DNA from: Minisyncoccota bacterium
GTDB taxonomy: Bacteria; Patescibacteriota; Minisyncoccia; Phycocordibacterales; UBA9973
Direction of reading: 5' to 3'
NCBI GenBank assembly: GCA_031413715.1
Contig: JANOFO010000009.1
Location: forward strand, 2,718 to 66,717
Length of the DNA: 64,000 bases
The notes under the pieces were generated by a model. That model was not told the DNA's origin and did no database searches. It saw only the letters and a list, made by a program, of their open reading frames with translations. Numbering within the stretch: position 1 is the stretch's first letter; every line of letters starts with the position of its first letter. Position numbers and translations under genes: made by a program. This document shows, in pieces, positions 4,475 to 57,385 of this stretch.

Positions 4475-5208
4475 AGATCAATCATCTTAAAATAACTTTA
4501 TATAGCTTTGCAATTCTCGGAATATTTTTGATATCTGCGCCTTCTTTTGCTGTTACTGCAATCAATTTTGACGGTCCGTCGCTATTGCCCACTGCTCGAA
4601 TTTTTATAAAGCCGAGCTCTGGTAATTATACAGCAGGTTCTACATTTGAAGCCCCGATTTACATAGATACAGAGAATAATAATATCAACGCTATCAATAT
4701 AAAACTGCGCTTTGACTCATCTAAACTTAAGGTTGTAAAATCTTCAAGCGGTGATTCAATCTTTGGTATATGGATAGAGAGTCCAAATTATGACAATGTG
4801 AAAGGTACGGCAAGCCTGGTGGGTGTGATACCAAATGGTATCGTCACATCATCCGGACTTATTGCGACGATTACCTTCAAAGCGCTTACAACAGGGCATG
4901 CCAATGTGATGCTTACTGACTATTCGAGCGCTAATCTCAATGATGGATATGGTACAGAAGTGAAATTAATTGAAAGTGGAGCATCGTATAATTTTACACC
5001 AGCAACCCCCAATTCGATCGTGGAGACACCTAAAGATACTTTCCCTAAACCAATTATTATCTATATTCATGATAAACAAGAGTCCTTTTTCCTATCTATA
5101 TATGCTGATCTATTTCTAAAATACAATTTTCCGATTCTTCTGCTCCTGTTACTACTTTTACTCCTTCTAGAAGAGAGGCGAAAAAAGGGAAAAACCCTTA
5201 ATAACTAA
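4471..5208 (+). CDS. Cohesin-like domain protein with C-terminal poly-Leu membrane anchor
   Basis: 245-aa ORF. Signal peptide, cohesin-like region (NAINIKLRFDSSKLKVVKSSSGDSIFGIW...ATITFKALTTGHANVMLTD), C-terminal ILLLLLLLLLLLEERRKKGK. 4-nt overlap with the upstream gene. Confidence 0.55.
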   Translation: MKINHLKITLYSFAILGIFLISAPSFAVTAINFDGPSLLPTARIFIKPSSGNYTAGSTFEAPIYIDTENNNINAINIKLRFDSSKLKVVKSSSGDSIFGIWIESPNYDNVKGTASLVGVIPNGIVTSSGLIATITFKALTTGHANVMLTDYSSANLNDGYGTEVKLIESGASYNFTPATPNSIVETPKDTFPKPIIIYIHDKQESFFLSIYADLFLKYNFPILLLLLLLLLLLEERRKKGKTLNN

Positions 5209-5295
5209 AGCTATTAACCCTTTCTTTTTAAGCTCATTTTTGCTATACTGTGAGAGTATTTCACCCGTCTAAAAGGGCGATTTTTCAATAACAAA

Positions 5296-7413
5296 ATGGC
5301 CAAAAAAGAAGAAAAAATATCTAAAAAAGGTAGTCCCTCCATCGAAAAGGCTGGCAAGTATGGAGCTGATCAGATATCTGTCCTCGAAGGCCTTGAGCCG
5401 GTACGTCGCCGTCCTGGAATGTATATCGGATCGACTGGCATAGACGGCCTCCACCATCTCATCTGGGAAATATTCGATAACTCTCGCGACGAGGCGATGG
5501 GCGGGTTTGCTGATCATATTGAAGTCACACTTCTTCCAGGGAATTCTGTCCGCGTCGTGGATAACGGCCGCGGCATTCCCGTTGATGTTCATCCGAAAAC
5601 GAAAGTGTCTGCTTTAGAGACTGTCATGACTACGCTTCATGCCGGTGGAAAATTTGGTGGAGACGATTCTGGATATAAAGTTTCCGGCGGACTCCATGGT
5701 GTCGGCGCCTCGGTTGTCAATGCACTTTCTATACATACAAAAGCTGAAGTTCATCGTGATGGTGGAAAATATATTCAAGAATATTCCCAAGGTAAAAGAA
5801 AAGCTGCTGTTAAAAAAGTAGGTACTTCAAAACAACACGGTACCATCATAAGCTTCACACCTGACGAGGAGATCTTTAAGCAAGTTAAATTTGATGGCAA
5901 TACAGTTATCAATCATTTGCGCCAGCAAGCATATCTCGTGAAAGGTTTGCGTATAGACATCATTGATGCACGCGACCTGTCTTCAAAAGAAGGCGCAAAA
6001 CTTGATTCCGATTCAATTTTTTGGTTTTCTGACTTGGGTCTCGAAGTTCCCTCCACTACATTTTACTTTGAAGGTGGGCTTGTGTCGCTTGTAAAATTTT
6101 ATAATAAACTTCAAAAACCTATTCATCCGAGTGTATTCTATATAGAGCGAGAGCTTGATAATGTCGGAGTAGAAGTTGCGTTGCAATACGTGGATGATGT
6201 AAATGCCCATATCGTTCCTTTTGCCAATAATATTTATAACCCAGAAGGTGGTACGCATGTTACAGGGTTCAAAACTGCGCTCACCCGCATACTCAATACG
6301 TATGGCAAAAAGAACAACATGATCAAAGAAGCCGACGGGGGATTTACTGGTGATGATGTTCTCGAAGGTCTTATGGTCGTCGTCTCAGTTAAACTTCGTG
6401 AAATTCAGTTTGAAGGTCAGACTAAAGGGAAGTTAGGATCAACCGAGGCTCAAGGTGCTGTCGCTACCGTATTCGGTGATGCATTTACGACTTTCTTGGA
6501 AGAGAATCCTGACGAAGCGAAAGCTATAATTAATAAATCAATATTAGCACTTAGGTCTCGTAAAGCCGCCAAGGCGGCAAAGGATTCCATTCTCCGTAAA
6601 GGAGCGCTTGAGGGCATGACTCTGCCAGGCAAGCTCGCTGATTGCCAGACAAAAAGTGCCGAAGAGGCAGAGCTTTTTATTGTAGAGGGAGATTCTGCTG
6701 GTGGAACTGCTAAAATGGGGCGCGACAGAAAAACCCAAGCAATACTTCCGCTTCGCGGAAAGATTCTCAATGTTGAGCGCGCTCGCCTTGATCGAATGCT
6801 CGGATCTGAGCAGATTAAAAATCTAGTAATTGCGATGGGCAGTTCTATCGGTGACACCTTTGATCTCGAAAAAATTCGCTACCACAAGATAATAATCGCT
6901 ACTGATGCCGATGTAGATGGAGCGCACATTCGCACTCTCATCCTTACCCTTATGTATAGGTATTTCCGCTTGGTCCTGGATGCTGGCTATGTATATATTG
7001 CCCAACCTCCGCTATTTAAAATCAAAAAAGGCAAAGAAATATTTTACGCTTATTCTGACCAAGAACGCGACAAGATCCTAGGCAAGGATGCCCCTTCGCT
7101 TGCTGAGCTTCTTTCCGAGTCTGCACAAGATGGTGCAGAAGAGGTAGAGGCAGAAATTGAAGAAGAAGACGCACAAACTAAAGCTAAAAAATCTGTAAAA
7201 ATTCATATACAAAGATACAAAGGTCTCGGTGAAATGAACGCTGAAGAACTTTGGGAGACAACTATGGACCCAGAGAGAAGGATTCTAAAACAAGTGACGA
7301 TAAATGATGCTGAAGACGCAAATAAAGTCTTCGACATGCTCATGGGTTCCGAAGTTCCTCCACGTAAGGCCTTCATCCAGTCTCACGCAAAGATGGCGAA
7401 TTTGGATATATAA
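5296..7413 (+). CDS. gyrB: DNA gyrase subunit B
   Basis: 705 aa. GHKL ATPase N-terminus (LEGLEPVRRRPGMYIGST, HLIWEIFDNSRDEAM), TOPRIM region (EGDSAGG), C-terminal ...RKAFIQSHAKMANLDI. Confidence 0.95.
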   Translation: MAKKEEKISKKGSPSIEKAGKYGADQISVLEGLEPVRRRPGMYIGSTGIDGLHHLIWEIFDNSRDEAMGGFADHIEVTLLPGNSVRVVDNGRGIPVDVHPKTKVSALETVMTTLHAGGKFGGDDSGYKVSGGLHGVGASVVNALSIHTKAEVHRDGGKYIQEYSQGKRKAAVKKVGTSKQHGTIISFTPDEEIFKQVKFDGNTVINHLRQQAYLVKGLRIDIIDARDLSSKEGAKLDSDSIFWFSDLGLEVPSTTFYFEGGLVSLVKFYNKLQKPIHPSVFYIERELDNVGVEVALQYVDDVNAHIVPFANNIYNPEGGTHVTGFKTALTRILNTYGKKNNMIKEADGGFTGDDVLEGLMVVVSVKLREIQFEGQTKGKLGSTEAQGAVATVFGDAFTTFLEENPDEAKAIINKSILALRSRKAAKAAKDSILRKGALEGMTLPGKLADCQTKSAEEAELFIVEGDSAGGTAKMGRDRKTQAILPLRGKILNVERARLDRMLGSEQIKNLVIAMGSSIGDTFDLEKIRYHKIIIATDADVDGAHIRTLILTLMYRYFRLVLDAGYVYIAQPPLFKIKKGKEIFYAYSDQERDKILGKDAPSLAELLSESAQDGAEEVEAEIEEEDAQTKAKKSVKIHIQRYKGLGEMNAEELWETTMDPERRILKQVTINDAEDANKVFDMLMGSEVPPRKAFIQSHAKMANLDI

Positions 7414-7420
7414 CCTAATT

Positions 7421-8587
7421 ATGACAATAGAAAAACTTTACATCGGTACCTGGTTCCAACGGACGACACTCCACCTCTCCGAGCTCTGGAAGCTGTTTGA
7501 TATTGACGGGCCGGAAACCGTTTTTGAAAAAAGTGATCTTATTCCTTTACGTAAATTTCTTAATCTTGCAGAGAGTGACCGTATAACTTCTGGATTCGAG
7601 GGTATAAAGTTTAAAACAGCATCAGGTATTTTGGGAACTATCTATGAAGATGGGCTTATGATTATCGCAACAGATGATGTGTCCGACACTGAAGAGGCTA
7701 AGGAATCTCTCAGACTCTACTATGAAAATTGCTTATCGAAGGCGGTCGCATATTTGTTCAGCAAAGGCGCGCCGATCCCGAAAGAGCTTGCCAATATTCC
7801 GACTGTTCTCCCATATATGTTCGTGGTTTCCAAGGGTAAGGATGATGAGATAGAGAATAAATTTTTTGGAGATAAGGAGAGGCTTCATAGTAAGACGGTA
7901 GGAAACAAAACCTCAGTTTGGAAAGGTTCATCAACCATGGTTCTTCATAATCCCACAAACGATGTCCAGCAAGCTATGATTGTCGAGACCCATATATTCT
8001 TTCGTGAGTTCAAAGTCCAGCTTGAGCGCTATCTTTCCATACATCGTTCCTTGTGGGAAAAGATCAAGAAGATCCTTGAGTCGGACAAAATAAAAGGCAC
8101 GGACATCGAACCTATCCGTACCGAACTGCAAGGATATCAGAAAACGGTCAATCTTATCGAAGCACGCATTAATCAGATGCCTGCATACGTCAAAACTCGC
8201 CAAAAACTCACAGTTATAGAAGGGGATGATAGTCTTGTTCTTATCACCTCGCTTCGGTTTGAAGATCTTCTCGATACTCATGAATATATCAAGCATCTTT
8301 GGGCTATGACCAAAAATTATTTGCAGTCAGCGCTCGATATGCTTACTGCGCTTCAATCCGAGAGTACCAAGACGAGTATTTCCTCTCTCCAGCTTGTCAC
8401 TACGATCGGCGTCATTTCAGGACTCATCGCGTATCTCGGCAAAGATGCACTTCCGCCGTTTACGATATTCGGCCTAGGATATCTGGCAAGCCTCCTTCTT
8501 CTCACTTGGCTCATCAATTCGGTTATTTCGTATATTTTCAAACGTAGGATGTATACAGTTAAGAAACATCCTAATCTAAAACTTTAA
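7421..8587 (+). CDS. Hypothetical membrane protein (cytoplasmic domain plus two C-terminal TM helices)
   Basis: The ORF track starts it at 7304 inside gyrB. The first ATG after the gyrB stop is 7421 (MTIEKLYIG...). Two C-terminal hydrophobic helices. Lies upstream of the CorC-like gene. Confidence 0.6.
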   Translation: MTIEKLYIGTWFQRTTLHLSELWKLFDIDGPETVFEKSDLIPLRKFLNLAESDRITSGFEGIKFKTASGILGTIYEDGLMIIATDDVSDTEEAKESLRLYYENCLSKAVAYLFSKGAPIPKELANIPTVLPYMFVVSKGKDDEIENKFFGDKERLHSKTVGNKTSVWKGSSTMVLHNPTNDVQQAMIVETHIFFREFKVQLERYLSIHRSLWEKIKKILESDKIKGTDIEPIRTELQGYQKTVNLIEARINQMPAYVKTRQKLTVIEGDDSLVLITSLRFEDLLDTHEYIKHLWAMTKNYLQSALDMLTALQSESTKTSISSLQLVTTIGVISGLIAYLGKDALPPFTIFGLGYLASLLLLTWLINSVISYIFKRRMYTVKKHPNLKL

Positions 8588-8590
8588 ACC

Positions 8591-9592
8591 ATGAACATAC
8601 TCCTTGCTATTGTTTGCATTTTATTCTCAGCGTTGTTCGCAGGATTGACCCTCGGACTGATGGGCCTCGATCTATCTACGCTTAGGCGCAAGATGAAACA
8701 TGGAGATCGTGATGCTGCTCGTGTTTACCATATTCGCGAGAATGGAATGTTCCTCCTGACTACGCTTCTATTGGGAAATGCTGCCGCATCGGCGTTCTTC
8801 TCGATACTTGTTGGAGATATTGTAAATAATTATTGGGCTGGAATCATCGCCACTGCCGCTCTTTTTATTGTCGGTGAAATACTACCACAAGCCATTGTCT
8901 CTCGATTTGCCCTTTCTTTTGGCGCTCATACAGCTCCGCTGATTCGCTTTATTATGATAATTTTCTCACCGATCTGCTACCCGATAGCATGGATACTCAA
9001 TAAAATTCTAGGCAAAGAAACTCCGACAAGTTATACCAAGCGCGACCTGCTCTCTATCATCGAAGATGATAAGACGACCCCTGATGGAGATGTCGATCAT
9101 GATGAACGACGAATTGCCAAAGGCGCCTTCTCATTCTCGCATCGCCTTGTAGAACATGTCATGACGCCGAATACAGTAGTCAAGCTCGTTCATGCAGAAG
9201 ATATTATTGATGAAGCATATTTGGCTGATCTGAAGGATTCCGGTTACTCCCGGCTTCCAGTCGGTACCAATGACCCGAATCAATTTGTGGGTATTTTGTA
9301 TTTGAAGGATCTTCTCGGCATTGTGATTCCGAAAAAAGTAAGAGACGTAATGGATTCTACTATTCATTTCGTAAATACTTCGGATCCTCTTGATACGGTC
9401 CTTGATCAATTTATTAAAACCAAAATGCATCTCTTTGTAGTTCTCGATGAGTTCGGAGGATTCGAAGGAGTGATTACGGTAGAAGACGTGATCGAAGAGA
9501 TCATCGGTGCTGAAATAATGGATGAAGATGATGTAACCCCCGATCTTCGTCAAGAAGCCATGCTTCATAGAATTCGTAGAAGGGTAGAGTAA
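8591..9592 (+). CDS. CNNM/CorC-HlyC family transporter (DUF21 membrane domain plus CBS pair)
   Basis: 333 aa. N-terminal multi-TM DUF21-like region (LLGNAAASAFFSIL), then CBS-like region. Confidence 0.8.
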   Translation: MNILLAIVCILFSALFAGLTLGLMGLDLSTLRRKMKHGDRDAARVYHIRENGMFLLTTLLLGNAAASAFFSILVGDIVNNYWAGIIATAALFIVGEILPQAIVSRFALSFGAHTAPLIRFIMIIFSPICYPIAWILNKILGKETPTSYTKRDLLSIIEDDKTTPDGDVDHDERRIAKGAFSFSHRLVEHVMTPNTVVKLVHAEDIIDEAYLADLKDSGYSRLPVGTNDPNQFVGILYLKDLLGIVIPKKVRDVMDSTIHFVNTSDPLDTVLDQFIKTKMHLFVVLDEFGGFEGVITVEDVIEEIIGAEIMDEDDVTPDLRQEAMLHRIRRRVE

Positions 9593-9641
9593 AAAATTGA
9601 CAATTTAATATTTTCATGTATAATGTAAAAAATTTTAAAAC

Positions 9642-10097
9642 ATGAAAAATATTCAGAATGTCAAACAATTCTTTGTCTTTAATAAGAAAGTTCCTATTGA
9701 TAGCATCGACCTTATCAAAGAAGAGGCAATCGGGAGGATTGTTCTTGTTGCTTCGGCAACAAACAACCATCCGGAAATGAAAAAACCCTTAGCAACCGAA
9801 ATAGCATCAATAATTGGAGAACTCGAAAAGGGCCTGGGTGTTGTCGCTCTTAAATCCAATTCTCTGTATTCAGGCTCAGCACAAAACAATAATACTCCGG
9901 CATTTGAATTTATCAAGGAAGCTGCGAAGAAAGCAGATACTCTTGTGATAAACACAAATTCAATTCTTATTCCAGGAGTGAAAGAGCTCATTCAGAAAGC
10001 TACAGGAATTATGCTGATTTCTACTGAAGTATTGTATGCTGGACAAATGCTGCATATTGATAATGTGCAAAAGACCTTTTGTGTTTATTTTAAATAA
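9642..10097 (+). CDS. Hypothetical protein
   Basis: 151-aa ORF in a consistent coding frame. No motif recognised. Confidence 0.5.
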   Translation: MKNIQNVKQFFVFNKKVPIDSIDLIKEEAIGRIVLVASATNNHPEMKKPLATEIASIIGELEKGLGVVALKSNSLYSGSAQNNNTPAFEFIKEAAKKADTLVINTNSILIPGVKELIQKATGIMLISTEVLYAGQMLHIDNVQKTFCVYFK

Positions 10098-28721: not shown

Positions 28722-31700
28722 ATGTATTCATTCGAAAAAACAAACAGAAAATTAAGAAACAAATCAAATACTGCGCTCGCAGTTTTATTGGTTGCTCTGT
28801 CACTTTTTCAGTTTCCATTCATCGGTAGAGCGGCATTTAACAAACAAATAAATTATCAAGGCAAGCTCACCAACGCGTCTGGAGTTGCAGTTGCAAATGG
28901 GGACTACAATATGGAATTCAAGTTAATGACAGTCTCAAGCGGTGGTGACACTACGCAAGGTTCGTGTACTACTAGTTGTGCATGGATGGAAACAAGAACT
29001 GGCGGAAGCAAGGTAACTGTGACGAACGGCCTCTTTAGTGTTCTCCTTGGTGAAGTTACTTCACTCTCTGGAGTTGATTTTAACCAGACCTTATATTTGT
29101 CAGTTCAGATCGGCAATACAGGAAGTCCATCATGGGATGGAGAAATGACTCCACGAAAAAAATTGGGAGCAGTTCCTGCAGCAGTTGAATCAGAGCGAGT
29201 CGGAGGATTTACTCCAGCCCAATCTGCAACAGGCAATCAAGTTCCGGTGCTTACATCTGGAAATTTAATTCTTGGCGGAACAAATCCAACATTCGGCGGA
29301 ACGGGATCAAATACATTGACGCTTCATAATGGCGCAACAGGAGATATTCAATTTTTCGGTTCATCAAATAAGATTACTTCCGGAGGCGCGCTTACAGTTA
29401 CGGGTGTTGTAAATGCTGCAGGATTGACTTCTTCTGGAGCAATTACATTTTCATCACTTGGCACCGGTATTGCTCATCTATCTTCGGGGGGCGTGCTCTC
29501 ATCGTCAGCTATTGATCTGGCAACTGCTGATGTCACGGGAATTTTGACAACAGCAAAAGGTGGAACAGGCATTGGAACACTTGCCTCCAATGCAGTACTC
29601 TATGGTAATGGTACCGGAGCCATTCAAGCCTTGGCTGTAAACTCAGGTGCAACCCTGTGTCTTACTCAAGCAAGTAGTGGTGCACCGGCATGGGGATCAT
29701 GTGGTGCAGGAGGCTCTACCAACTGGGATACCATAGGTGATGCAGGAGGGAATGGCGCCATTGCTATGGGTACCACGGAGCAGACTATGGATTGGGATTT
29801 CACTACGACTGATCACGATGGACTTACCTTTAATTTTGATAACAATGGAGGAACAGCAGGGACCGACCATGGAATTGTTATCAATAACGCACTCTCAACA
29901 AATGCATCTGGAGATCTTGATACAGAAAATTTATTACTGATTCAACAACTCGATACGACTGCTTCTGGCGTAACTGATATTGATAATCTTCTTAAGATAG
30001 ATATCGCAGCAAACTCAGGTGCAACTGATGGCATCGAAATTACAAATTCTGGAGGAAACATCACTGGCAGTGGACTTAATATTGTCGACACAGGAGGCGG
30101 TACCTTTACAACAGGCATCACGCTTGCGGGAACGTTTACTACTGGAATAGATATGGGAGCGAGTACATTAATTAATATTGGAAACGCTGCCACTGATTTT
30201 AATTCGAGCGGTGGACTAACACTTGCGAGTGACCTCGTACTCAATGCCCAAGCAGATGTCCGGTTTGCAGATGCGGATAGTTCTCATTATGTTGGATTCC
30301 AAGCACCATCAAGTATCAGTTCGAGCTTTACATGGACACTGCCATCTACTGACGCAACAGGGTGTCTAAAATCGAATGGTTCAGGAACACTTTCTTTTGA
30401 TGGTGCCTGTGGAGAAACTGACTATGAAACATTTACAGGAAATGGAACTTTTACTAAAAAATCAAATGCCCTTTTAGTTGTTGTCGAAGCATGGGGTCCT
30501 GGTGGTGGCGGTGCAGGAGGAGGTAGTGTTGCTGCTGGTACCGCTACTACAGGTGGTGGAGGTGGTGGAGGAGGCGCATATACAACTCGATCGATTGCTG
30601 CAGGATCTGTCGGAGCGACTGAAACGGTGACCGTTCCTGCTGGCGGTACGGCTGGAACCGGTGGTACAAATGCTGTCGGTACAGATGGTTCTGCTCCGAC
30701 AGCTGATACAAGTTTTGGATCACTCCTCATTGCATATAGAGGAGGAGGTTCTGGAAATGGAAACAACTCTGCTACTGGCGGCGGAGGCGGCGGAGGCGGC
30801 GGATCAGCAGGTGCAGGAACAAGCTCGACGAACCAAACAGGAGGAGCTGGTGGTACATGTGCTGGTGGTGTAACCGTTGGTGCTGGAGCAAACGCTTTTG
30901 GTAGCTGTGGCGGCGGCGGAGGAACAACAACTTCAGGTAATGCGAATGAAGGAGGAGGCGGTGGTGGAGGACTTGCTGCCGGAGGAACTGCAGGACGATC
31001 GGGAGGTACATCCCTCAAGGGAGGCGGCGGAGGCGGTGGAGGAGCAAGTCTTGCAGCAACTCATGCTTCGACTGCCGGAGGTCCAGGAGGTGCAAGTGGT
31101 GCTGCGATGCAGGCAGCAGGAACCGGCGGAGGTGTTGCCGGAGGTGCTGCTGGAACAAATAATGGAACTGCCGGCCAAGATGCAACTTCTTCAACTGGTT
31201 CGCAGATTGGAGGTGGTGGAGGAGGCGGTGGAGGAGGCAGTCAGGCTACAGCTGGATCAAACGGCGGAGCCGGGGCAGTCGGAGGTATTCCTGGAGGAGG
31301 TGGTGGAGGAGGCGGAGCAGGAACGCATAACGGTTCGACAGGAAGTGGCGGAGCCGGAGGAGCCGGCGCACGTGGAGAAATTCGTGTTTGGACCTATCGT
31401 GGCACAGGAGCCGATTTGGCGGAAGTTTACGGAACAAATGACTCAACCCTTGAAGCCGGAGATGTCGTATCTCTTGATCATGACATGCAAGCGGGAGTTA
31501 AAAAAAGCAGCAAAGCATATGATGCTGAGGTAATGGGTATTGTTTCAACAAAACCTGGCATGATTATCGGTAATATTGAAGATGCTGGCGCCATTCCAGT
31601 CCTTCTCGCACTCTCTGGTCGTGTTCCCGTAAAAGTAAATATGGAAAATGGCGCGATTAAAAAAGGCGACCTCCTTACCCCTTCATCCATTCCTGGTGTT

Positions 31701-32990
31701 GCAATGCGAGCGACAAAAGCAGGTAGTATTATCGGACAGTCAATGACAGAGTATATTGACCCTGATGCGCCAGGGTATGTGGTAGTTTTTATTAAGAATA
31801 GTCATACGACGGGAGCAAAACTTTCTGATCTTTTTGCAGGAGAACTTGAGATGATAGGAGGGGAGATAGATAAAGGAGTGGAATTAAATCCATCAGAATT
31901 AATAAAAGGAACCAAAACGCTCCAACAGCGTGCACTTGCTTATTTTAATACTAATAAATTGACTCTCTCAGAGTCTCTCAATCTTTCGGAAGTGACTGCC
32001 GATAGAGTTACTGCAGGACTTGAAATTATAACGCCGACACTCTTTGTAGGAACTGTTTCAACCGATTCTATAACTCCTCTAAATGGAACTTCTCTTGATA
32101 TACTGCTTTCGAATGAAGGTACATTCAACATTAAGAACCAATTGTTGACAGAAGGAGCCGGATCAGCCGAACCTATTGTCAGTATTGATAATTTAGGGAA
32201 CGCGACATTTGCGGGTAATCTAAAAGTAAAAAGTATCAAAGCAGATTCGATCGAAGGTCTCGATTCTTTACTCATGACTAATGCCCATTTAGCCTGGGAT
32301 TCTTTCACAACAAAAACCCTGACTGTATCCGAGAACGCAATCTTTAGTGGAGAATCAAGGTTTGATGGCCTCACATTCTTTAGTATGGCTGCGAACTTTG
32401 ATTCCAGTGTGACATTTAATGCACAATCGGAATTTATTCTTCCACCACTCTTCAATAGTGATACAGCTGGCTTTGCTATAATAAAAAAGGGGAGTCGCAG
32501 AGTTCAAATAATTTTTGAGACGCCTTATATAGTTGAGCCTGTTGTAACCACATCGCTTGTATTTAGCACTGCGGATAAAGTGACTGATTCTGGAGCAGAT
32601 GAGATATTTACTGCAAGCGTTCAGTCTCTTGTCATCGATAGTGATCAAAATGGATTTACTATTTTTTTGAACAAAAACGCGCCACAAGATCTAAGATTCA
32701 CTTGGAATGCGCTTTCTGTCCGCGATCCGAAAATTTTTGAAAGTGTTATCGAAGGTCTCACCATTGAAAATTTACCACTAGACCTACTTCCGCCAGATCC
32801 TTTACCTGATCCAATTCCAGAACCCGACCCAGTCCCTGATCCAACTTCAAAAGAAGAAGATCCAGTTCTTGATCCTATTCCTGTGCTTGATCCAGAGCCT
32901 GTCCAACAAGAAGACCCAGCCCCGATACTTATAGAGATATCTGAGCCGGTAGTGGAAACAAAAGAGGAGCCCATTCCTATAGTTGAGTAA
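28722..32990 (+). CDS. Giant (1422 aa) secreted glycine-rich fibre-like surface protein with Pro/Asp-rich C-terminal tail
   Basis: Signal peptide. N-terminal YQGKLT... beta domains. About 300 aa of GGGGGGG/GAGG low-complexity repeats. C-terminal PDPLPDPIPEPDPVPDP. Confidence 0.75.
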   Translation: MYSFEKTNRKLRNKSNTALAVLLVALSLFQFPFIGRAAFNKQINYQGKLTNASGVAVANGDYNMEFKLMTVSSGGDTTQGSCTTSCAWMETRTGGSKVTVTNGLFSVLLGEVTSLSGVDFNQTLYLSVQIGNTGSPSWDGEMTPRKKLGAVPAAVESERVGGFTPAQSATGNQVPVLTSGNLILGGTNPTFGGTGSNTLTLHNGATGDIQFFGSSNKITSGGALTVTGVVNAAGLTSSGAITFSSLGTGIAHLSSGGVLSSSAIDLATADVTGILTTAKGGTGIGTLASNAVLYGNGTGAIQALAVNSGATLCLTQASSGAPAWGSCGAGGSTNWDTIGDAGGNGAIAMGTTEQTMDWDFTTTDHDGLTFNFDNNGGTAGTDHGIVINNALSTNASGDLDTENLLLIQQLDTTASGVTDIDNLLKIDIAANSGATDGIEITNSGGNITGSGLNIVDTGGGTFTTGITLAGTFTTGIDMGASTLINIGNAATDFNSSGGLTLASDLVLNAQADVRFADADSSHYVGFQAPSSISSSFTWTLPSTDATGCLKSNGSGTLSFDGACGETDYETFTGNGTFTKKSNALLVVVEAWGPGGGGAGGGSVAAGTATTGGGGGGGGAYTTRSIAAGSVGATETVTVPAGGTAGTGGTNAVGTDGSAPTADTSFGSLLIAYRGGGSGNGNNSATGGGGGGGGGSAGAGTSSTNQTGGAGGTCAGGVTVGAGANAFGSCGGGGGTTTSGNANEGGGGGGGLAAGGTAGRSGGTSLKGGGGGGGGASLAATHASTAGGPGGASGAAMQAAGTGGGVAGGAAGTNNGTAGQDATSSTGSQIGGGGGGGGGGSQATAGSNGGAGAVGGIPGGGGGGGGAGTHNGSTGSGGAGGAGARGEIRVWTYRGTGADLAEVYGTNDSTLEAGDVVSLDHDMQAGVKKSSKAYDAEVMGIVSTKPGMIIGNIEDAGAIPVLLALSGRVPVKVNMENGAIKKGDLLTPSSIPGVAMRATKAGSIIGQSMTEYIDPDAPGYVVVFIKNSHTTGAKLSDLFAGELEMIGGEIDKGVELNPSELIKGTKTLQQRALAYFNTNKLTLSESLNLSEVTADRVTAGLEIITPTLFVGTVSTDSITPLNGTSLDILLSNEGTFNIKNQLLTEGAGSAEPIVSIDNLGNATFAGNLKVKSIKADSIEGLDSLLMTNAHLAWDSFTTKTLTVSENAIFSGESRFDGLTFFSMAANFDSSVTFNAQSEFILPPLFNSDTAGFAIIKKGSRRVQIIFETPYIVEPVVTTSLVFSTADKVTDSGADEIFTASVQSLVIDSDQNGFTIFLNKNAPQDLRFTWNALSVRDPKIFESVIEGLTIENLPLDLLPPDPLPDPIPEPDPVPDPTSKEEDPVLDPIPVLDPEPVQQEDPAPILIEISEPVVETKEEPIPIVE

Positions 32991-41966: not shown

Positions 41967-43751
41967 ATGAACGGAACTGCCCAGAAAATAAAAGAGAGAC
42001 TCTCTATCGTTGATGTTATTTCATCGTATCTTTCTTTAGATCAAGCTGGTAAAAATTACAAAGCTAAATGCCCGTTCCATAACGAGAAGACTCCCTCATT
42101 TTTCATTTCTCCTGATCGTGGTACATACTATTGTTTCGGTTGCAATGCCAAAGGCGATATCTTTTCTTTCGTAGAACATTTTGAAGGAACTGATTTCCTT
42201 GGTGCTTTGAAAATTTTGGCCGAGCGTGCGGGAATCACACTCGAGTATGGTAGTCGCAATGAATCTCATGATGATAAAGAAAAACTCTACGCTATCATGG
42301 AAGAAGCTACGGTATTTTTCGAAACCGTATTCGAGAAAATGCCTGAACCTCGAAGTTATCTCCGTGATCGTGGACTCTCTGATGCAACGATTAAAGCATT
42401 TCGAATCGGATATGCACCTCAAGCATGGAAATCAGTTTCAGACCATTTGGTCACCAAAGGATTTTCTATTGCTGATATAGAAACTGTCGGACTCTCTAAA
42501 AAGGGGAACAACGGCTTTTATGATCGGTTCCGTTCTCGTATTATTTTCCCAATTAGTGATTCAAGTGGCAGAGTCATAGCTTTCTCAGGTCGGATTTTTA
42601 CTCTTTCTCCAGATACTAAATCTACTATTGAAGAGGCCCGCCCGCCCGATTCATTCGGGCAGGCAAAATATCTCAATAGTCCTGATACTCCACTTTTCAA
42701 CAAATCCAATGTGCTATTTGGTATTGATAAAGCAAAAGCTGCCATTCGTACTCGTGGATACAGCATTATGGTTGAAGGTCAGATGGATCTCATCCTTTCT
42801 CATCAAGCAGGGCTCACTAATACCGTTGCAGTGTCGGGTACCGCGCTTGCGGATAATGTAAACGATGAGTCCTCAAGCGAGTCTAAAATAAATAACCTCG
42901 GTCTTGTTCGCCGTCTCTCTCCAAATATTATATTTGCTTTTGACGGTGACACTGCCGGAATTAGGGCAGCAGGTCGCTCAGCTATGATCGCCCTGTCCCT
43001 CGATATGCAGGTCAAAATTGCTGTTATGCCGGAAGGGCAAGATCCTGCGGATATCATCGTTAAAAACGAAGCGACATGGAAAGATATCATCAAAAATTCG
43101 GTAAACATCGTAAATTTTCATATCAATCGTATTTGTACAAGCACTACTGATATCAGATTAAGAGGCAAAGAGATTCGCGACATTGTCTTTCCATTCCTCT
43201 CTATGGTCCTAAGTTCAATTGAACGTTCGGCATATATTAACGAGATTTATGCAAAGACCGGGCTATCCGAGAGGGCTATTATTGAAGACTTTGAGAAATA
43301 TGAACGTACAACTAATGTTAATAAAGTTGTTACGAGAGATCAAAAGGTAAGTAAGGAAGTAAAAGAAAGTATTGCCAAGTCCCGTCGAGAAAACCTTGAA
43401 CATAGACTCTTTGGTATACTTTTCTGGCAAACTGCTGATGGGGAAGTATCTAAAGAAATAAAAGAACTTATTGATTTTCTAAAAGAACGGATAACAGTAG
43501 AAACATTTGAAAAAATGAAAGAAGTACACGAACCATTCTCTGATAGGCTGGCAATTGAAGCTGAAATGTGGTATGGTAGCAAGATTGAGACGCTTACTCG
43601 TGACCTACGGGAACTCATATTAAACCTCGAGGAAGAAATCTTGCATGAACAAAAAATTATTCTGCAGCCTCTCGATACCGAAGAAAAACTTACAAATTTT
43701 AATATAATATCAAAACGGATTGAAGAAATTAGAAAAGAGCGTTCGTTATAA
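41967..43751 (+). CDS. dnaG: DNA primase
   Basis: CHC2 zinc finger CPFHNEKTPSFFISPDRGTYYCFGC, TOPRIM EGQMDLIL...DGDTAG. Contains an in-frame GC-rich insertion at 42637-42665. Confidence 0.9.
   Translation: MNGTAQKIKERLSIVDVISSYLSLDQAGKNYKAKCPFHNEKTPSFFISPDRGTYYCFGCNAKGDIFSFVEHFEGTDFLGALKILAERAGITLEYGSRNESHDDKEKLYAIMEEATVFFETVFEKMPEPRSYLRDRGLSDATIKAFRIGYAPQAWKSVSDHLVTKGFSIADIETVGLSKKGNNGFYDRFRSRIIFPISDSSGRVIAFSGRIFTLSPDTKSTIEEARPPDSFGQAKYLNSPDTPLFNKSNVLFGIDKAKAAIRTRGYSIMVEGQMDLILSHQAGLTNTVAVSGTALADNVNDESSSESKINNLGLVRRLSPNIIFAFDGDTAGIRAAGRSAMIALSLDMQVKIAVMPEGQDPADIIVKNEATWKDIIKNSVNIVNFHINRICTSTTDIRLRGKEIRDIVFPFLSMVLSSIERSAYINEIYAKTGLSERAIIEDFEKYERTTNVNKVVTRDQKVSKEVKESIAKSRRENLEHRLFGILFWQTADGEVSKEIKELIDFLKERITVETFEKMKEVHEPFSDRLAIEAEMWYGSKIETLTRDLRELILNLEEEILHEQKIILQPLDTEEKLTNFNIISKRIEEIRKERSL
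42637..42665. repeat. GC-rich motif GCCCGCCCGCCC...GGGCAGGC (copy inside dnaG, in frame)
   Basis: Shares CCCGCCCGCCC and GGGCAGGCA blocks with 59514..59547. Both are imperfect hairpins. Confidence 0.6.
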
Positions 43752-43785
43752 GTAAAAAGGGCCAAGCGCGATTTGGCTAAATCAT

Positions 43786-45075
43786 ATGTCTAAAAAAACT
43801 AAAAAGAAAATTATTAAAAAATCAAAAAAGAAAGCGATCAAAAAAAATATTGTCAAGAAATCTGCTAAAAAAGGAGCAAAAAAGAACGTGTCCAAGAAAA
43901 AGGTTTTAAAAAAGCCTGCAAAATCTACCAAGAAACCTCTAAAGAAGCAAAACGAGCCCAAGAAGGCAGCTAAGGGTGCCAAAGCTACCGCACTTGAGCG
44001 CAAAGCTCACGACCTTGAACAGAAATCACAATTAATGATAGAAAAAGGCAAGAAACGCGGTTTTGTGACATATGATGAAATCATAAAAGTTTTTCCTGAT
44101 ATCGAGAACAATATTCTTTTCCTTGATGAACTCTACGAGAAGCTCTCGATATCTGGTATCGATGTTCTTGAAGGTGGAAATCTTCTTGATATGGATGGCG
44201 ACACAGAGAAGCAGGCGCTTAAATACTCTAAAGATGCTCAGACGTATGACTCTATACAGATGTATTTAAAGGAAATTGGCCAGTATCCGCTTATTACTGC
44301 ATTTGATGAGAAAGATCTGGCTCGTCGTATTGAAAAAGGTGATATGGAAGCCAAGAACTTGCTTGCTCGTGCGAACCTCCGTCTCGTGGTATCTATAGCA
44401 AAAAAATACGTCGGACGTAGTTCAGATCTTACCCTTCTTGATCTCATACAGGAAGGAAACCTTGGACTATTTAAAGCAGTCGAGAAATTTGACTGGACGA
44501 AGGGCTATAAATTCTCGACATATGCTACGTGGTGGATCCGTCAGTCTATCACTCGCGCACTTGCTGACCAGTCTCGCACGATCCGTATTCCAGTTCACAT
44601 GGTGGAGACTATTTCCAAATACAAACAGGTTGTTCGCAGACTTTCTCAGGATCTTGGCCGTGAGCCACTAGTGGAAGAAATAGCAACGGAGATGAATTTG
44701 GAAGTTGAAAAGATTCACATCATTGAGCAGATCAATCAGGAAACAGTCTCACTTGAACAGCCGATAGGGGATGACGACGAAAAGTCTACTCGTGGCGAAT
44801 TCATTCCTGATGACAAGATCCTCCGTCCCGATCAAGATGCCTCACGTCGTATCCTATCTGACCAAATCAAAGAAGTTCTAGATACACTTACACCTAAAGA
44901 AAGAAAAATTCTAGAGTTGCGCTATGGTTTAAACGACGGCATTCAGCATACACTCGAAGAAGTGGGAACAGAGTTTAATGTCACTCGTGAGCGTATCCGT
45001 CAAATTGAAGCGAAGGTTCACGAAAAGCTCCGCAATAACGAAAAAATCGCAAGACTTAAAAACTACTTTGATTAA
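43786..45075 (+). CDS. rpoD: RNA polymerase sigma factor (sigma70 family) with N-terminal Lys-rich extension
   Basis: Regions 2-4 ([13 protein letters not shown], helix-turn-helix [20 protein letters not shown]). N-terminal KKxxKK repeats. Confidence 0.9.
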
Positions 45076-45679
45076 AAAAACAAAAGATATTTTAAAAAAA
45101 GTTATAGCCGCTATCATTATTACTATATTAGCGATTTTTGTTGCCTTTTCAAATTCAAAAGATAAAGAAGTATTTAAAGAAGCAAATATTGAAGTGAAAG
45201 AGTTCTCTGATAGCGAAAAAACTGAAGAAGTTAACCAAAAAGACTCTTCTATAAAGGACCAGAAAGCTCGGTATTTCTCTCTTGCTGCTGAACAAATGCA
45301 AAAGGGTGATTTTAGATCATCAATTGAAAATTTTCAAAAAGTAGTAAATATTGATCCTACTAATAATTTTGAACCACAGAACATAAGAGCACTTTCAGGT
45401 GAATTATCTTTATATATAGTTTTAGGAAGAAATGGAGACATTAGAGATTCAGATAATAAAAGGATAATTGAAGTCGCGACAAAAATCATAGATTCTGGTA
45501 TTGTTAATGATCCAGATGTTGCAGGTATCTACTTTGCTAGAGGAGTAGCATATGCCGATAGTAAGCAATATGATAAGGCAATTGCTGATTTTGACCTTGT
45601 CATAAAGATTGATCCCTCTATGAGAGAAGAGGCTCTGAATTTCAGAGAAGATGTCTTAAGAGAAAAAGAAGGGTTATAG
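45069..45679 (+). CDS. TPR-repeat protein with N-terminal TM anchor (start uncertain)
   Basis: Open from 44978, overlapping the rpoD end. A TTG at 45069 overlapping the rpoD stop is a plausible start. [18 protein letters not shown], then TPR-like repeats. Confidence 0.5.
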
Positions 45680-45691
45680 TAGGGTAGCAAC

Positions 45692-45790
45692 AGTTACTCG
45701 CGAGCGTATCCGTCAGATCGAAGCCAAAGTTCACGAAAAGCTCCATAATAACGAAAAAATCGCAAGACTTAAAAACTACAAGGAAAGAAA
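45692..45790 (+). repeat. Diverged (~90% identity) duplicate of the rpoD 3' end (matches 44983..45066)
   Basis: Would encode [29 protein letters not shown], the same peptide as the real rpoD C-terminus apart from R to H, with mostly synonymous nucleotide changes. Confidence 0.85.
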
Positions 45791-45800
45791 TACAAAAATA

Positions 45801-45836
45801 AAAAGACCATTTTTTAAAAGATGGTCTTTTCGTTTG
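45801..45836. terminator. Bidirectional rho-independent terminator
   Basis: AAAAGACCAT-tttttaaaag-ATGGTCTTTT with an A-rich 5' flank. Confidence 0.75.
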
Positions 45837-45837
45837 A

Positions 45838-46536
45838 TTATAGCTGTCCTGAAACTGTATCTTTCTTGTCCATCAAACCAAAGAGTAAGTCAGCATACTT
45901 CCAGAATGCATCTTCGCCTTTCAATTTAGCGACACAGTCAGCCGCAGTGAGCATTGCAAATGAATGCTGATGAAGAGGGTAGTGACGATAAATCCAGGCG
46001 GTATCTGGATTCTCCTTTACGATTCTCTCTAATACCGGATGATATCCTTTACAGTATGGACATTCAAAATCAGAATATTCTATTATGGTGACTTTAGCAT
46101 TCGGATTACCCATGACATGATCGCCTGGCTCGGAAAGTACGACATTACCAGTGTAGGGTATTGTTGCTTTACCGAGAAGAGCATCATCAACTATCTTTTT
46201 CGTATTTTCATATGTTTCTTGTCCGCGAATATCTGTTCTGGCTCCGTTTTGACCAATGACGATAGTATACGGAGTACCGCGCTGCTCTCGAGGATACGGA
46301 CTCATAGCTTTATCCACACTTTGCACGATACGAGCATTAAGAGCCTCATCATCGGTTCCCTCGATACATGCCTGCAAGCTCGCATTGGATACTCCTACCT
46401 GTTCGGATAGTGTTTTTGGGGTGGAGATGCCACTGCCACCTCGAGTGCCCAAAATACCAATCATAATAAGGACTCCAGCAACAATAATAGCTGAAGGAAC
46501 TGAAATTTGAGATTTACTCGCTGGCTTATTTTCCAT
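45838..46536 (-). CDS. DsbA-family thiol:disulfide oxidoreductase, membrane anchored
   Basis: 232 aa. N-terminal TM. Thioredoxin-fold CxxC motif FECPYCKGYHP. Confidence 0.8.
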   Translation of the reverse strand: MENKPASKSQISVPSAIIVAGVLIMIGILGTRGGSGISTPKTLSEQVGVSNASLQACIEGTDDEALNARIVQSVDKAMSPYPREQRGTPYTIVIGQNGARTDIRGQETYENTKKIVDDALLGKATIPYTGNVVLSEPGDHVMGNPNAKVTIIEYSDFECPYCKGYHPVLERIVKENPDTAWIYRHYPLHQHSFAMLTAADCVAKLKGEDAFWKYADLLFGLMDKKDTVSGQL

Positions 46537-46645
46537 ACGTAGTATTGTATCATGACTTTTTATTGCACGCTACGAGGCAGTATATGTTATAATAAAAACG
46601 TTATTAAATGGTCTCTTTATTATTAATTTTCCACTTCTAGGTGGA

Positions 46646-46954
46646 ATGCGAGTACACAATATGATGACATGTAATTGTAAAAGTGGATGCGGTTGCTCGA
46701 AGTTTGGGTTGGTCCTTATTATTATCGGTGGTCTTAACTGGGGCCTTGTCGGCGCAGGTATGCTCTTTGGTTCTATGCACGACATGAGTTGGAATGTTGT
46801 CCATATGCTCCTTGGATCATGGCCAGTTGTCGAAGGCATTGTTTATCTCTTGGTAGGTATTGCGGCAATCGTCAAAATTTTTGGCTGCCCATGCAAGAAA
46901 TGCAAAGGTATGGATGCTGCCCCTATGGGAACTCCTTCTGGTTCATCAATGTAA
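46646..46954 (+). CDS. DUF378-like small membrane protein with Cys-rich N- and C-terminal extensions
   Basis: GLNWGLVGAGMLFG matches the DUF378 signature. CNCKSGCGC and CPCKKCKG cysteine clusters. Confidence 0.55.
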   Translation: MRVHNMMTCNCKSGCGCSKFGLVLIIIGGLNWGLVGAGMLFGSMHDMSWNVVHMLLGSWPVVEGIVYLLVGIAAIVKIFGCPCKKCKGMDAAPMGTPSGSSM

Positions 46955-57310: not shown

Positions 57311-57385
57311 GGAGCCGCCTCCCAGACTCGAACTGGGGACCCTCACTTTACAAAAGTGTAGCTCTACCAACTGAGCTAAGGCGGC
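57311..57385 (-). tRNA. tRNA-Thr (anticodon TGT)
   Basis: Reverse complement GCCGCCTTAGCTCAGTTGGTAGAGCTACACTTTTGTAAAGTGAGGGTCCCCAGTTCGAGTCTGGGAGGCGGCTCC folds as a cloverleaf: 7-bp acceptor stem, GTTCGAGTC T-loop, anticodon loop TTTGTAA. A27-A43 mismatch; CCA not encoded. Confidence 0.85.

Follow-up and report, generated by a model that had tools for sequence, protein, structure and literature searches.

In Paceibacteria, the gene for the primary sigma factor, rpoD, usually runs into a transcription terminator and a convergent dsbA gene. The stretch of DNA studied here (64 kb, hereafter the window) comes from a 170,739-bp metagenome-assembled contig of a Paceibacteria ('Nomurabacteria'-like; candidate phyla radiation, CPR) genome, and in it a gene for a tetratricopeptide repeat (TPR) protein and a second copy of the rpoD 3' end stand between rpoD and the terminator. 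Where did the TPR gene come from, how was it inserted, and what is the second rpoD end? We show that an insertion took place behind rpoD, and we conclude that a single-gene cassette was indeed acquired laterally here and left an informative recombination scar, of a kind that recurs in the clade. As to how it arose, we put a probability of about 0.5 on the segment at approximately 45068-45779 having entered the conserved junction of rpoD, terminator and minus-strand dsbA as a small insert of lateral origin, brought in by homology-driven, integrase-less integration.

Lateral acquisition of the TPR gene

An earlier reading of the window (the original prediction) had noticed a TPR open reading frame (ORF) between two rpoD ends, overlapping the rpoD stop. 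We indeed find it at 45068-45679; its TTG start (45068-45070) lies ahead of the rpoD stop (45073-45075), and the two genes overlap. The product has a Lys-rich N-terminus, one transmembrane helix and TPR repeats, and it scored 49.5, 46.1 and 43.3 bits against the Pfam models TPR_1, TPR_2 and TPR_8, all above the respective cut-offs of 27.8, 27 and 25.7 bits.

Relatives of rpoD were sought in GTDB genomes, JGI metagenomes and a collection of 5.8 billion proteins. Scans with the RpoD protein yielded loci from 80 species-representative genomes and from as many metagenome contigs, without exception Patescibacteria/Paceibacteria ('Nomurabacteria'), and the comparison set comprised 162 Paceibacteria/'Nomurabacteria' loci plus three added later (L164, L165 and L166). 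A homologue of the TPR gene was absent from all 160 scanned loci. The 5.8 billion proteins held only two real homologues, an identical 203-aa protein on record (P0001) and a second one with 75% amino acid (aa) identity (P0002). The latter is encoded on locus L081, directly after rpoD and followed by a terminator and minus-strand dsbA; there is no second rpoD end at that locus.

L081 is distant from the window, the products of dnaG, rpoD and dsbA sharing 41%, 72% and 41% aa identity, respectively. At the nucleotide (nt) level rpoD is 72.5% identical and the TPR ORF 84.6% (86.8% in the TPR domain); past the TPR stop identity is 45%, and the similarity of the TPR genes is bounded by start codon and stop codon. 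Substitution rates, calculated by the Nei-Gojobori method, gave a proportion of synonymous differences (pS) of 0.33 for the TPR gene, with 0.43 synonymous (dS) and 0.12 non-synonymous (dN) substitutions per site and a dN/dS ratio (omega) of 0.28, whereas rpoD (pS 0.79) and dnaG (pS 0.76) were both saturated. The TPR gene has a GC content of 0.312, and of 0.20 at third codon positions (GC3), against a window mean of 0.405; GC is as low as this in only 0.6% of 612-nt windows and resembles that of the low-GC L081 genome. Since its pS of 0.33 contrasts with saturated rpoD and dnaG and its GC3 is aberrant, substitution rates and base composition show the TPR gene to have been acquired laterally from another lineage. 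The omega of 0.28 shows purifying selection, and with a pS far under that of rpoD and dnaG the gene is functional and much more recent than the divergence of the window and L081 hosts.

Terminator and promoter scans detected neither a terminator of its own nor a promoter-like site upstream of the TPR gene, and the intrinsic terminator at 45801-45836 is the sole plus-strand terminator-like site in 43600-46700. It is similar in sequence to those found 1-3 nt past the rpoD stop in L002 and L004. Since the TPR gene lies between rpoD and the rpoD terminator, it is predicted to be expressed with the dnaG-rpoD operon, whose 3' end it extends in translational coupling to rpoD; rpoD, the TPR gene and the second rpoD end would form one transcription unit closed by this terminator.

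The second rpoD end

The rpoD end is repeated downstream of the TPR gene at about 90% identity, as had been predicted. Copy 1 (44980-45066) and copy 2 (45693-45779) match at 79 of 87 nt (8 mismatches, 90.8% identity), and copy 2 translates to the sigma-70 C-terminal sequence. Ungapped extension lengthens the repeat to 106 nt at 84% identity (44980-45085/45693-45798), the added bases being A-rich. An extension upstream of 44980/45693 was rejected as not real, with about half of the positions matching over purine-rich sequence, and the sequence before copy 2 does not significantly resemble the part of rpoD that precedes copy 1. We scanned the whole window for direct repeats of at least 35 nt, setting low-complexity repeats aside; the rpoD-end repeat was the only one, and chance is therefore excluded as its origin. 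No further direct-repeat boundary of this size exists elsewhere in the 64 kb.

The differences between the copies had been described as mostly synonymous, and the tally is seven synonymous to one non-synonymous: six synonymous third-position changes, and a change of CGC to CAT (45744-45746) that replaces Arg by His. All eight mismatches fall in the first 54 nt of copy 2 (P approximately 0.03 against a uniform distribution). This 5' part matches copy 1 at 46 of 54 positions and other lineages at up to 48 of 54, and the dN/dS comparison that the original prediction had proposed gave a dS of about 1.0 and a dN of 0.023 for it. The 3' part matches copy 1 at 33 of 33 positions; the best of 161 other loci reaches 30 of 33, and over the last 31 nt of the tract the best other locus reaches 28, with a mean of 22.5. 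Since the 5' part is as divergent as an orthologue and the 3' part is identical to copy 1, copy 2 is shown, by its sequence, to be a hybrid of a piece of another lineage's working rpoD and resident sequence.

Copy 2 lacks the final two rpoD codons and the stop (TTTGATTAA), and its frame contains no ATG, GTG or TTG from the upstream stop to the repeat. The frame, said earlier to end soon after the repeat, in fact stays open for 50 codons past it to 45929, crossing the terminator and running antisense to dsbA. Since it has neither a start codon nor the FD* ending, copy 2 is shown to be a dead, non-functional fragment. The Arg that it has lost is invariant in 162 of 162 rpoD genes, and with these three features the residual coding constraint that had been proposed for it finds no support. 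Neutral decay in place, with copy 1 constrained, would make about 64% of changes non-synonymous, whereas one of eight is (P approximately 0.004). The synonymous bias is best read as historical, stemming from a working rpoD in another lineage rather than from present constraint, and the change of Arg to His and the loss of TTTGATTAA are the first signs of decay. Copy 2 was also considered as an independent gene or as an extension of the TPR gene, and both were discarded: a start codon is missing, and the tandem TAG TAG that closes the TPR gene lies in another frame.

The features of the region are listed in Table 1. In an alignment of the left junction the window reads TTTGATTAAAAAAACAAAAG and L081 reads ...TTTGATTAAATTATGATTCAAAAAACAAAAG. 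The TTG start looks like the rpoD end fused to an original ATGATT start at TGATT (45069-45073), a possible microhomology with the ATGATT start of L081. On the right, similarity to L081 stops at TAGTA in the 13-nt joint. A weak 7-bp hairpin at 45682-45699 (GGGUAGC/GUUACUC, loop AACA) spans the border between the last 10 nt of this joint and copy 2 and is probably due to chance. A short-word BLAST search of the 20-nt joint behind copy 2 against all loci gave only A-rich chance matches; this joint weakly resembles AGAGGAGC...GAAATA... downstream of rpoD in L164, and may be a heavily deleted leftover of the native rpoD-downstream region. Elsewhere in the window, an ORF at 28722-32990 (1422 aa) has Gly-rich imperfect repeats of the (GGN)n type (11 units of 42 nt, 30495-31382), and the only known RNA family detected with Rfam in the whole window is one tRNA (57313-57385).

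Table 1. Features of the rpoD-dsbA region, in window coordinates.
Feature	Position	Strand	Description	Support
dnaG	41967-43751		precedes rpoD	
rpoD	43786-45075	+	primary sigma-70, 429 aa, intact, ends ...KNYFD*	Pfam regions 1.1, 1.2, 2, 3 and 4 all matched
Repeat copy 1	44980-45066	+	29 rpoD codons, VTRERIRQ...RLKNY, 87 nt, just ahead of FD and stop	
Identical block in copy 1	45034-45066	+	33 nt, identical to 45747-45779; candidate crossover or gene-conversion tract	
Left junction	45067-45075	+	TTTGATTAA; final two rpoD codons and stop, overlapped by TPR TTG start	
TPR gene	45068-45679	+	203 aa, membrane-anchored at N-terminus; between repeat copies	
13-nt joint	45680-45692	+	TAGGGTAGCAACA; second in-frame TAG plus 10 nt (45683-45692), between TPR stop and copy 2	
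Copy 2, 5' part	45693-45746	+	54 nt, rpoD-derived, orthologue-level divergence	
Copy 2, 3' part	45747-45779	+	33 nt, as resident rpoD, ends ...AAAAACTAC (KNY), without TTTGATTAA	
20-nt joint	45780-45799	+	AAGGAAAGAAATACAAAAAT; A-rich, copy 2 to terminator	
Intrinsic terminator	45801-45836	+	13-bp stem, 4-nt loop (hairpin 45801-45830), T run	fold and scan
dsbA	45838-46536	-	DsbA/thioredoxin-like, convergent; its stop abuts the terminator	Pfam Thioredoxin_4/DSBA

Insertions between rpoD and dsbA in related loci

The gene order in relatives is conserved as dnaG, rpoD, dsbA on the minus strand, in some cases DUF378, and GT2. RpoD of the window is 93-96% identical in aa to that of other Paceibacteria, and the C-terminal motif with its immediate stop is kept in 162 of 162 rpoD genes (..NYFD* in 147, close variants in 15). 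Comparison of the rpoD-downstream regions, as suggested in the original prediction, showed that rpoD mostly leads through a terminator to dsbA. Empty sites of this kind are present in the closest relatives by protein, with gaps of 114 nt in L164 and 42 nt in L165 and L166, and in the 23 closest genomes inspected (one of them masked) a hairpin-containing stretch follows the rpoD stop. Alleles without the TPR gene thus exist, seen only in different species: a search of the GTDB genomes, JGI metagenomes and 5.8 billion proteins returned no strain-level allele, the nearest rpoD genes being 93-96% identical in aa and 77-79% in nt, and the closest in the protein collection 96% in aa and only 77% in nt.

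In 123 of the loci with data, dsbA is the right-hand neighbour of rpoD; the gap measures 41-137 nt in 36 of them and up to 3.7 kb in others. Several kinds of cargo recur at the site, namely PaaX-like genes in four loci, Y1_Tnp genes within approximately 0.75 kb in six and a diversity-generating retroelement (DGR) in two, and at some other loci the cargo is flanked by repeats of the post-stop hairpin region, not of the rpoD end. The rpoD-dsbA interval is a variable hotspot. Integration hotspots between core genes without recognisable mobile-element genes are a general concept in comparative genomics. The interval resembles them in holding accessory genes that vary among lineages, with gaps from 41 nt to 3.7 kb, and differs in that the second rpoD end is a physical scar recording how at least some insertions arose.

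Comparable scars, behind cargo other than the TPR gene, are found at six related loci. In all, 7 of the 162 loci have inserted genes followed by a second rpoD 3' end on the same strand: the window (87 nt, 8 mismatches; transmembrane and TPR protein), L064 (74 nt, 4 mismatches, all synonymous and within the first 21 nt; small ORFs and Y1_Tnp with hairpins resembling repetitive extragenic palindromic (REP) sequences), L078 (42 nt, identical; DGR, the remnant forming the last 13 codons of the reverse transcriptase (RT)), L110 (46 nt, 7 mismatches; Y1_Tnp), L139 (53 nt, 8 mismatches; GT2), L144 (42 nt, between REP hairpins beside a Y1_Tnp gene) and L149 (53 nt, identical; a PaaX/Cas2-like gene). 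The other six inserts contain Y1_Tnp, RVT_1/bAvd, GT2, PaaX_M and unassigned ORFs, and no integrase was detected among them. All seven remnants overlap in approximately 30 nt (...EKIARLKNY) and have the same orientation; their left limits lie anywhere from -96 to -39 and their right limits before, at or after the stop, and the longest identical runs are 10 nt in L110 and 22 nt in L139.

Some remnants can be traced further. That of L144 matches the resident rpoD tail at 24 of 42 positions and the nearest relatives at 25-27, while the resident tail itself matches these relatives at 29-38 of 42; by this comparison the remnant is clearly of foreign origin. The L139 remnant is closer to three other lineages than to its resident copy. 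When the four differences of L064 are set against the nearest relative they split 2-2, and the native rpoD-downstream region follows the second copy at its native spacing.

Several elements at these loci deserve description in their own right. L078 contains a complete DGR between rpoD and dsbA (7374-9845), with a target gene that bears the variable region (7819-7948), a template repeat (8313-8442; 87% identical), a bAvd-like gene (8459-8722, minus strand) and an RT gene (8841-9845) whose last 13 codons and stop are the duplicated rpoD end; an RT 86% identical to it is found at the same offset in L053. REP-like palindromic hairpins flank Y1_Tnp genes, which resemble those of IS200 or REP-associated tyrosine transposases (RAYT), just past rpoD in L064 (7651-7678 and 8390-8417), L144 (5150-5420) and L110 (5111-5150 and about 5878-5892). 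In L144 the foreign 42-nt rpoD end sits between two such hairpins, as if mobilised along with them. A PaaX_M (Cas2-like) gene of 186-188 aa (81-82% identical) lies on the minus strand directly after rpoD in L149 (5151-5717), L114 (5229-5789), L154 (5221-5781) and L131 (about 5154-5714). Copies of a 38-nt palindrome (TACCATAATA..CGGCCG..TATTATGGTA) flank it, except in L149, where the duplicated rpoD end does so.

A conserved element of approximately 80 nt directly follows the rpoD stop in 10 Paceibacteria loci and is absent from the window: L011 (7120-7216), L015 (7096-7192), L050 (5202-5298), L052 (7093-7189), L064 (8503-8600), L077 (4961-5057), L128 (5096-5192), L147 (2480-2577), L164 (1421-1520) and L095. 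It carries an invariant motif, AATATTGTACC[CT]AG, at +52 to +55, and its predicted fold has nested outer pairs around one hairpin followed by a second hairpin; 11 of 22 predicted pairs still pair despite changes on both sides. No Rfam family matched it at threshold, and it may be an undescribed 3' untranslated region or small-RNA motif. Perfect direct repeats of 55-56 nt in L017 (4969-5178), L038 (12491-12700), L080 (3393-3602) and L058 (7093-7224), spaced by exactly 155 nt in three of them, look like assembler k-mer artefacts.

Possible mechanisms of integration

We propose that the incoming DNA carried an rpoD 3' end beside the TPR gene, on a circular or circularly permuted molecule, and that a single crossover (Campbell or 'ends-in' integration) with the resident rpoD 3' end would have taken place inside the 33-nt identical tract. 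This would leave rpoD intact, the cargo ahead of the native terminator and a hybrid second copy behind, whose 5' 54 nt would come from another rpoD allele, diverged under purifying selection elsewhere, and whose 3' 33 nt would be resident. The fragment would have decayed afterwards (Arg to His, loss of TTTGATTAA), and the cassette, were it later to be excised by way of the two copies, would take the fossil 5' piece along. The order rpoD end then TPR gene in L081 and the order TPR gene then partly foreign rpoD end in the window are circular permutations of each other, which makes integration of a circular or permuted molecule the simplest explanation. The Campbell model accounts for the mosaic, the intact rpoD, the cargo before the native terminator and the missing integrase. 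As in Campbell integration, the shared segment is duplicated on both sides in direct orientation, and one of the copies is hybrid and includes an identical tract in which exchange could have occurred. At other loci, repeats lying past the rpoD stop likewise fit homology-driven better than site-specific joining. Uptake by natural transformation is plausible: competence has been documented in Saccharibacteria (PMC10633639) and in Patescibacteria (PMC10633639, PMC10187176). We infer from these patterns that there was a circular intermediate, where the crossover fell and how the DNA was taken up.

Several observations weigh against this proposal. The model predicts TTTGATTAA after copy 2, but the 20-nt A-rich joint stands there, so that the junction is less simple than predicted and an extra deletion or rearrangement is needed. 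Most known cases of Campbell integration involve plasmids or laboratory constructs that share hundreds of base pairs of homology, whereas 33-53 nt are available here, and RecA-type exchange hardly works on tracts shorter than the 33 identical nt. Our searches returned no circular form, empty-site allele or strain-level relative, the closest rpoD being 77-79% identical in nt; synonymous sites are saturated against the relatives, and either of the two 5' parts (copy 1 or copy 2) may be the native one. The remnants of L110 and L139 differ throughout and fit recent homologous exchange poorly unless they are old, and L081 has the TPR gene without a remnant.

The same end product could result from homology-facilitated illegitimate recombination (HFIR), which is biologically plausible and which we regard as the main, if doubtful, alternative. 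Here linear DNA from a relative already carrying rpoD with the TPR gene would be anchored on one side by homologous exchange within rpoD, and an illegitimate join would link its other end to the recipient, 96 nt ahead of the rpoD stop there; copy 1 and the TPR gene would then be imports, and copy 2 with the terminator the native end that they displaced, in line with the original prediction. In natural transformation this process places integrase-less foreign DNA beside a conserved anchor gene and needs neither integrase nor circle (PMC3240628), natural competence exists in Patescibacteria (PMC10633639), and partial duplications (merodiploids) are a documented by-product of transformation (PMC3784515). 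The terminator after copy 2 resembles those directly behind rpoD in L002 and L004, and in L064 the native downstream element keeps its native spacing after the second copy. The joints at 45683-45692 and 45780-45799 are short and look like illegitimate-join filler, and TGATT at the TPR start is a candidate microhomology; at an illegitimate junction of this kind, filler or microhomology of 3-10 nt would be expected. However, HFIR usually deletes rather than duplicates recipient DNA, and it does not predict the foreign and native mosaic of copy 2, with 8 differences in 54 nt and then none in 33 nt (P approximately 0.03). A native end should moreover read ..YFD*, which this one does not; the phylogenetically discordant copy of L144 is a remnant and not a resident tail, and the anchor would have to work over approximately 10-15% divergence.

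The original prediction had compared the locus with integration at the 3' ends of genes, as at tRNA or tmRNA attachment sites, with reconstitution of the target. The likeness to such islands and prophages, which also use protein genes, is real in its geometry: direct repeats bound the insert, one of them in a conserved gene 3' end; the rpoD frame is restored (KNYFD*), the incoming DNA supplying an equivalent end; sites are empty in most relatives, and the same gene end is reused in different lineages. Its integrase mechanism finds no support. Neither a tyrosine or serine recombinase gene nor an excisionase was found in or next to the insert, or an integrase or excisionase in the six comparable ones; all are tiny (0.7-2.7 kb), many with just one gene, the repeats vary from 42 to 87 nt by locus, and the second copy is partly orthologue-divergent. 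Because no integrase is present, the window structure falls outside the attL/attR island family. A literature search returned no case of the rpoD 3' end as an attachment or recurrent insertion site, only papers using rpoD as a reference gene. It is unlikely, in our view, that a site-specific recombinase acting in trans or since lost made the rpoD end an attB, the copies attL and attR and the TPR gene leftover cargo, or that a Y1/HUH enzyme of the RAYT or IS200-like kind mobilised it. The approximately 30 nt in which all seven remnants overlap in one orientation, the Y1_Tnp genes and REP-like hairpins adjoining three of the seven (L064, L110 and L144), and the diverged remnants of L110 and L139, for which homologous exchange is a poorer fit than an att arm having a short core, speak for such an enzyme. 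The variable repeat limits (left -96 to -39; right before, at or after the stop), flanking repeats wholly downstream of rpoD in other loci and the absence of any integrase or recombinase in or beside the seven inserts speak against it, as does the lack of a Y1_Tnp, PaaX-like or RT homologue in the 64 kb.

Other mobile elements were compared with the insert as well. It has no terminal inverted repeats and no transposase, and its 87-nt repeat with a foreign-like 5' part contrasts with the short 2-15 bp duplication, identical at birth, that a transposon leaves. The features of REP/RAYT elements (Y1_Tnp and REP hairpins) are present in L064, L110 and L144, whereas no REP-like hairpin borders the TPR gene. 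An integron cassette was rejected, with no attC-like inverted repeat at the cassette end and no integrase. A phage or provirus origin was rejected too: no viral contig carried the rpoD-end pattern, even in degenerate form, or the TPR gene, to which viral contigs gave generic matches only.

Duplication in place followed by decay, through a long target-site duplication, a template switch or tandem duplication with deletion, would give copies identical at birth. Such young, perfect repeats exist in L149 (53 nt) and L078 (42 nt), the 2-2 split in L064 suits it, and tandem duplication with deletion could explain a copy 2 without FD*. In the window, however, one non-synonymous difference in eight against approximately 64% expected (P=0.004), a 5' part with a dS near 1 and a dN of 0.02 beside 33 unchanged nt, and the fact that this 5' part matches other lineages at least as well as copy 1 make it very improbable, and the foreign origin of the TPR gene and the discordant L144 remnant would be left unexplained. 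The old segmental duplication that had been offered earlier is disfavoured by the same ratio and by the confinement of all differences to the first 54 nt. We give still less credence to an assembly chimera of two strains joined via a shared rpoD end. The contig is metagenome-assembled, and some perfect 55-nt repeats elsewhere look like k-mer artefacts; yet the joint of TPR stop, 13 nt and copy 2 offers no shared k-mer able to create it, the identical tract is just 33 nt long, the copies differ at eight positions, and the same architecture occurs in independent assemblies from different projects.

If homology-driven integration is extended to the other loci, the rpoD 3' end (the region 4.2 coding sequence with the stop) might, as a tentative generalisation, be a portable homology arm for integrase-less mini-cassettes of Paceibacteria. 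Their cargo would be TPR, PaaX/Cas2-like and GT2 genes, DGRs and Y1 transposases, each with the fossil rpoD end of a former host. Such a cassette would be excised between its two copies, be transferred across lineages, natural transformation being the probable route, and join a new rpoD end through a single crossover, where it would land ahead of the rpoD terminator and be expressed from a housekeeping operon.

Our results provide direct sequence evidence of gene transfer between distant CPR/Patescibacteria lineages, whose mobile elements and transfer routes are poorly known, and show that insertion of one accessory gene does not require an element-encoded recombinase. They also correct a tempting misreading: a strong synonymous bias in the differences of a dead duplicate from its gene need not reflect constraint today, since the fragment can have inherited it from its past in another genome. 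The second rpoD end is a marker by which such events can be traced in metagenomes. Finally, the rpoD-terminator interval is a recurrent, tolerated and transcribed landing site, and could serve as a neutral expression site in this group, some members of which are transformable (PMC10633639).

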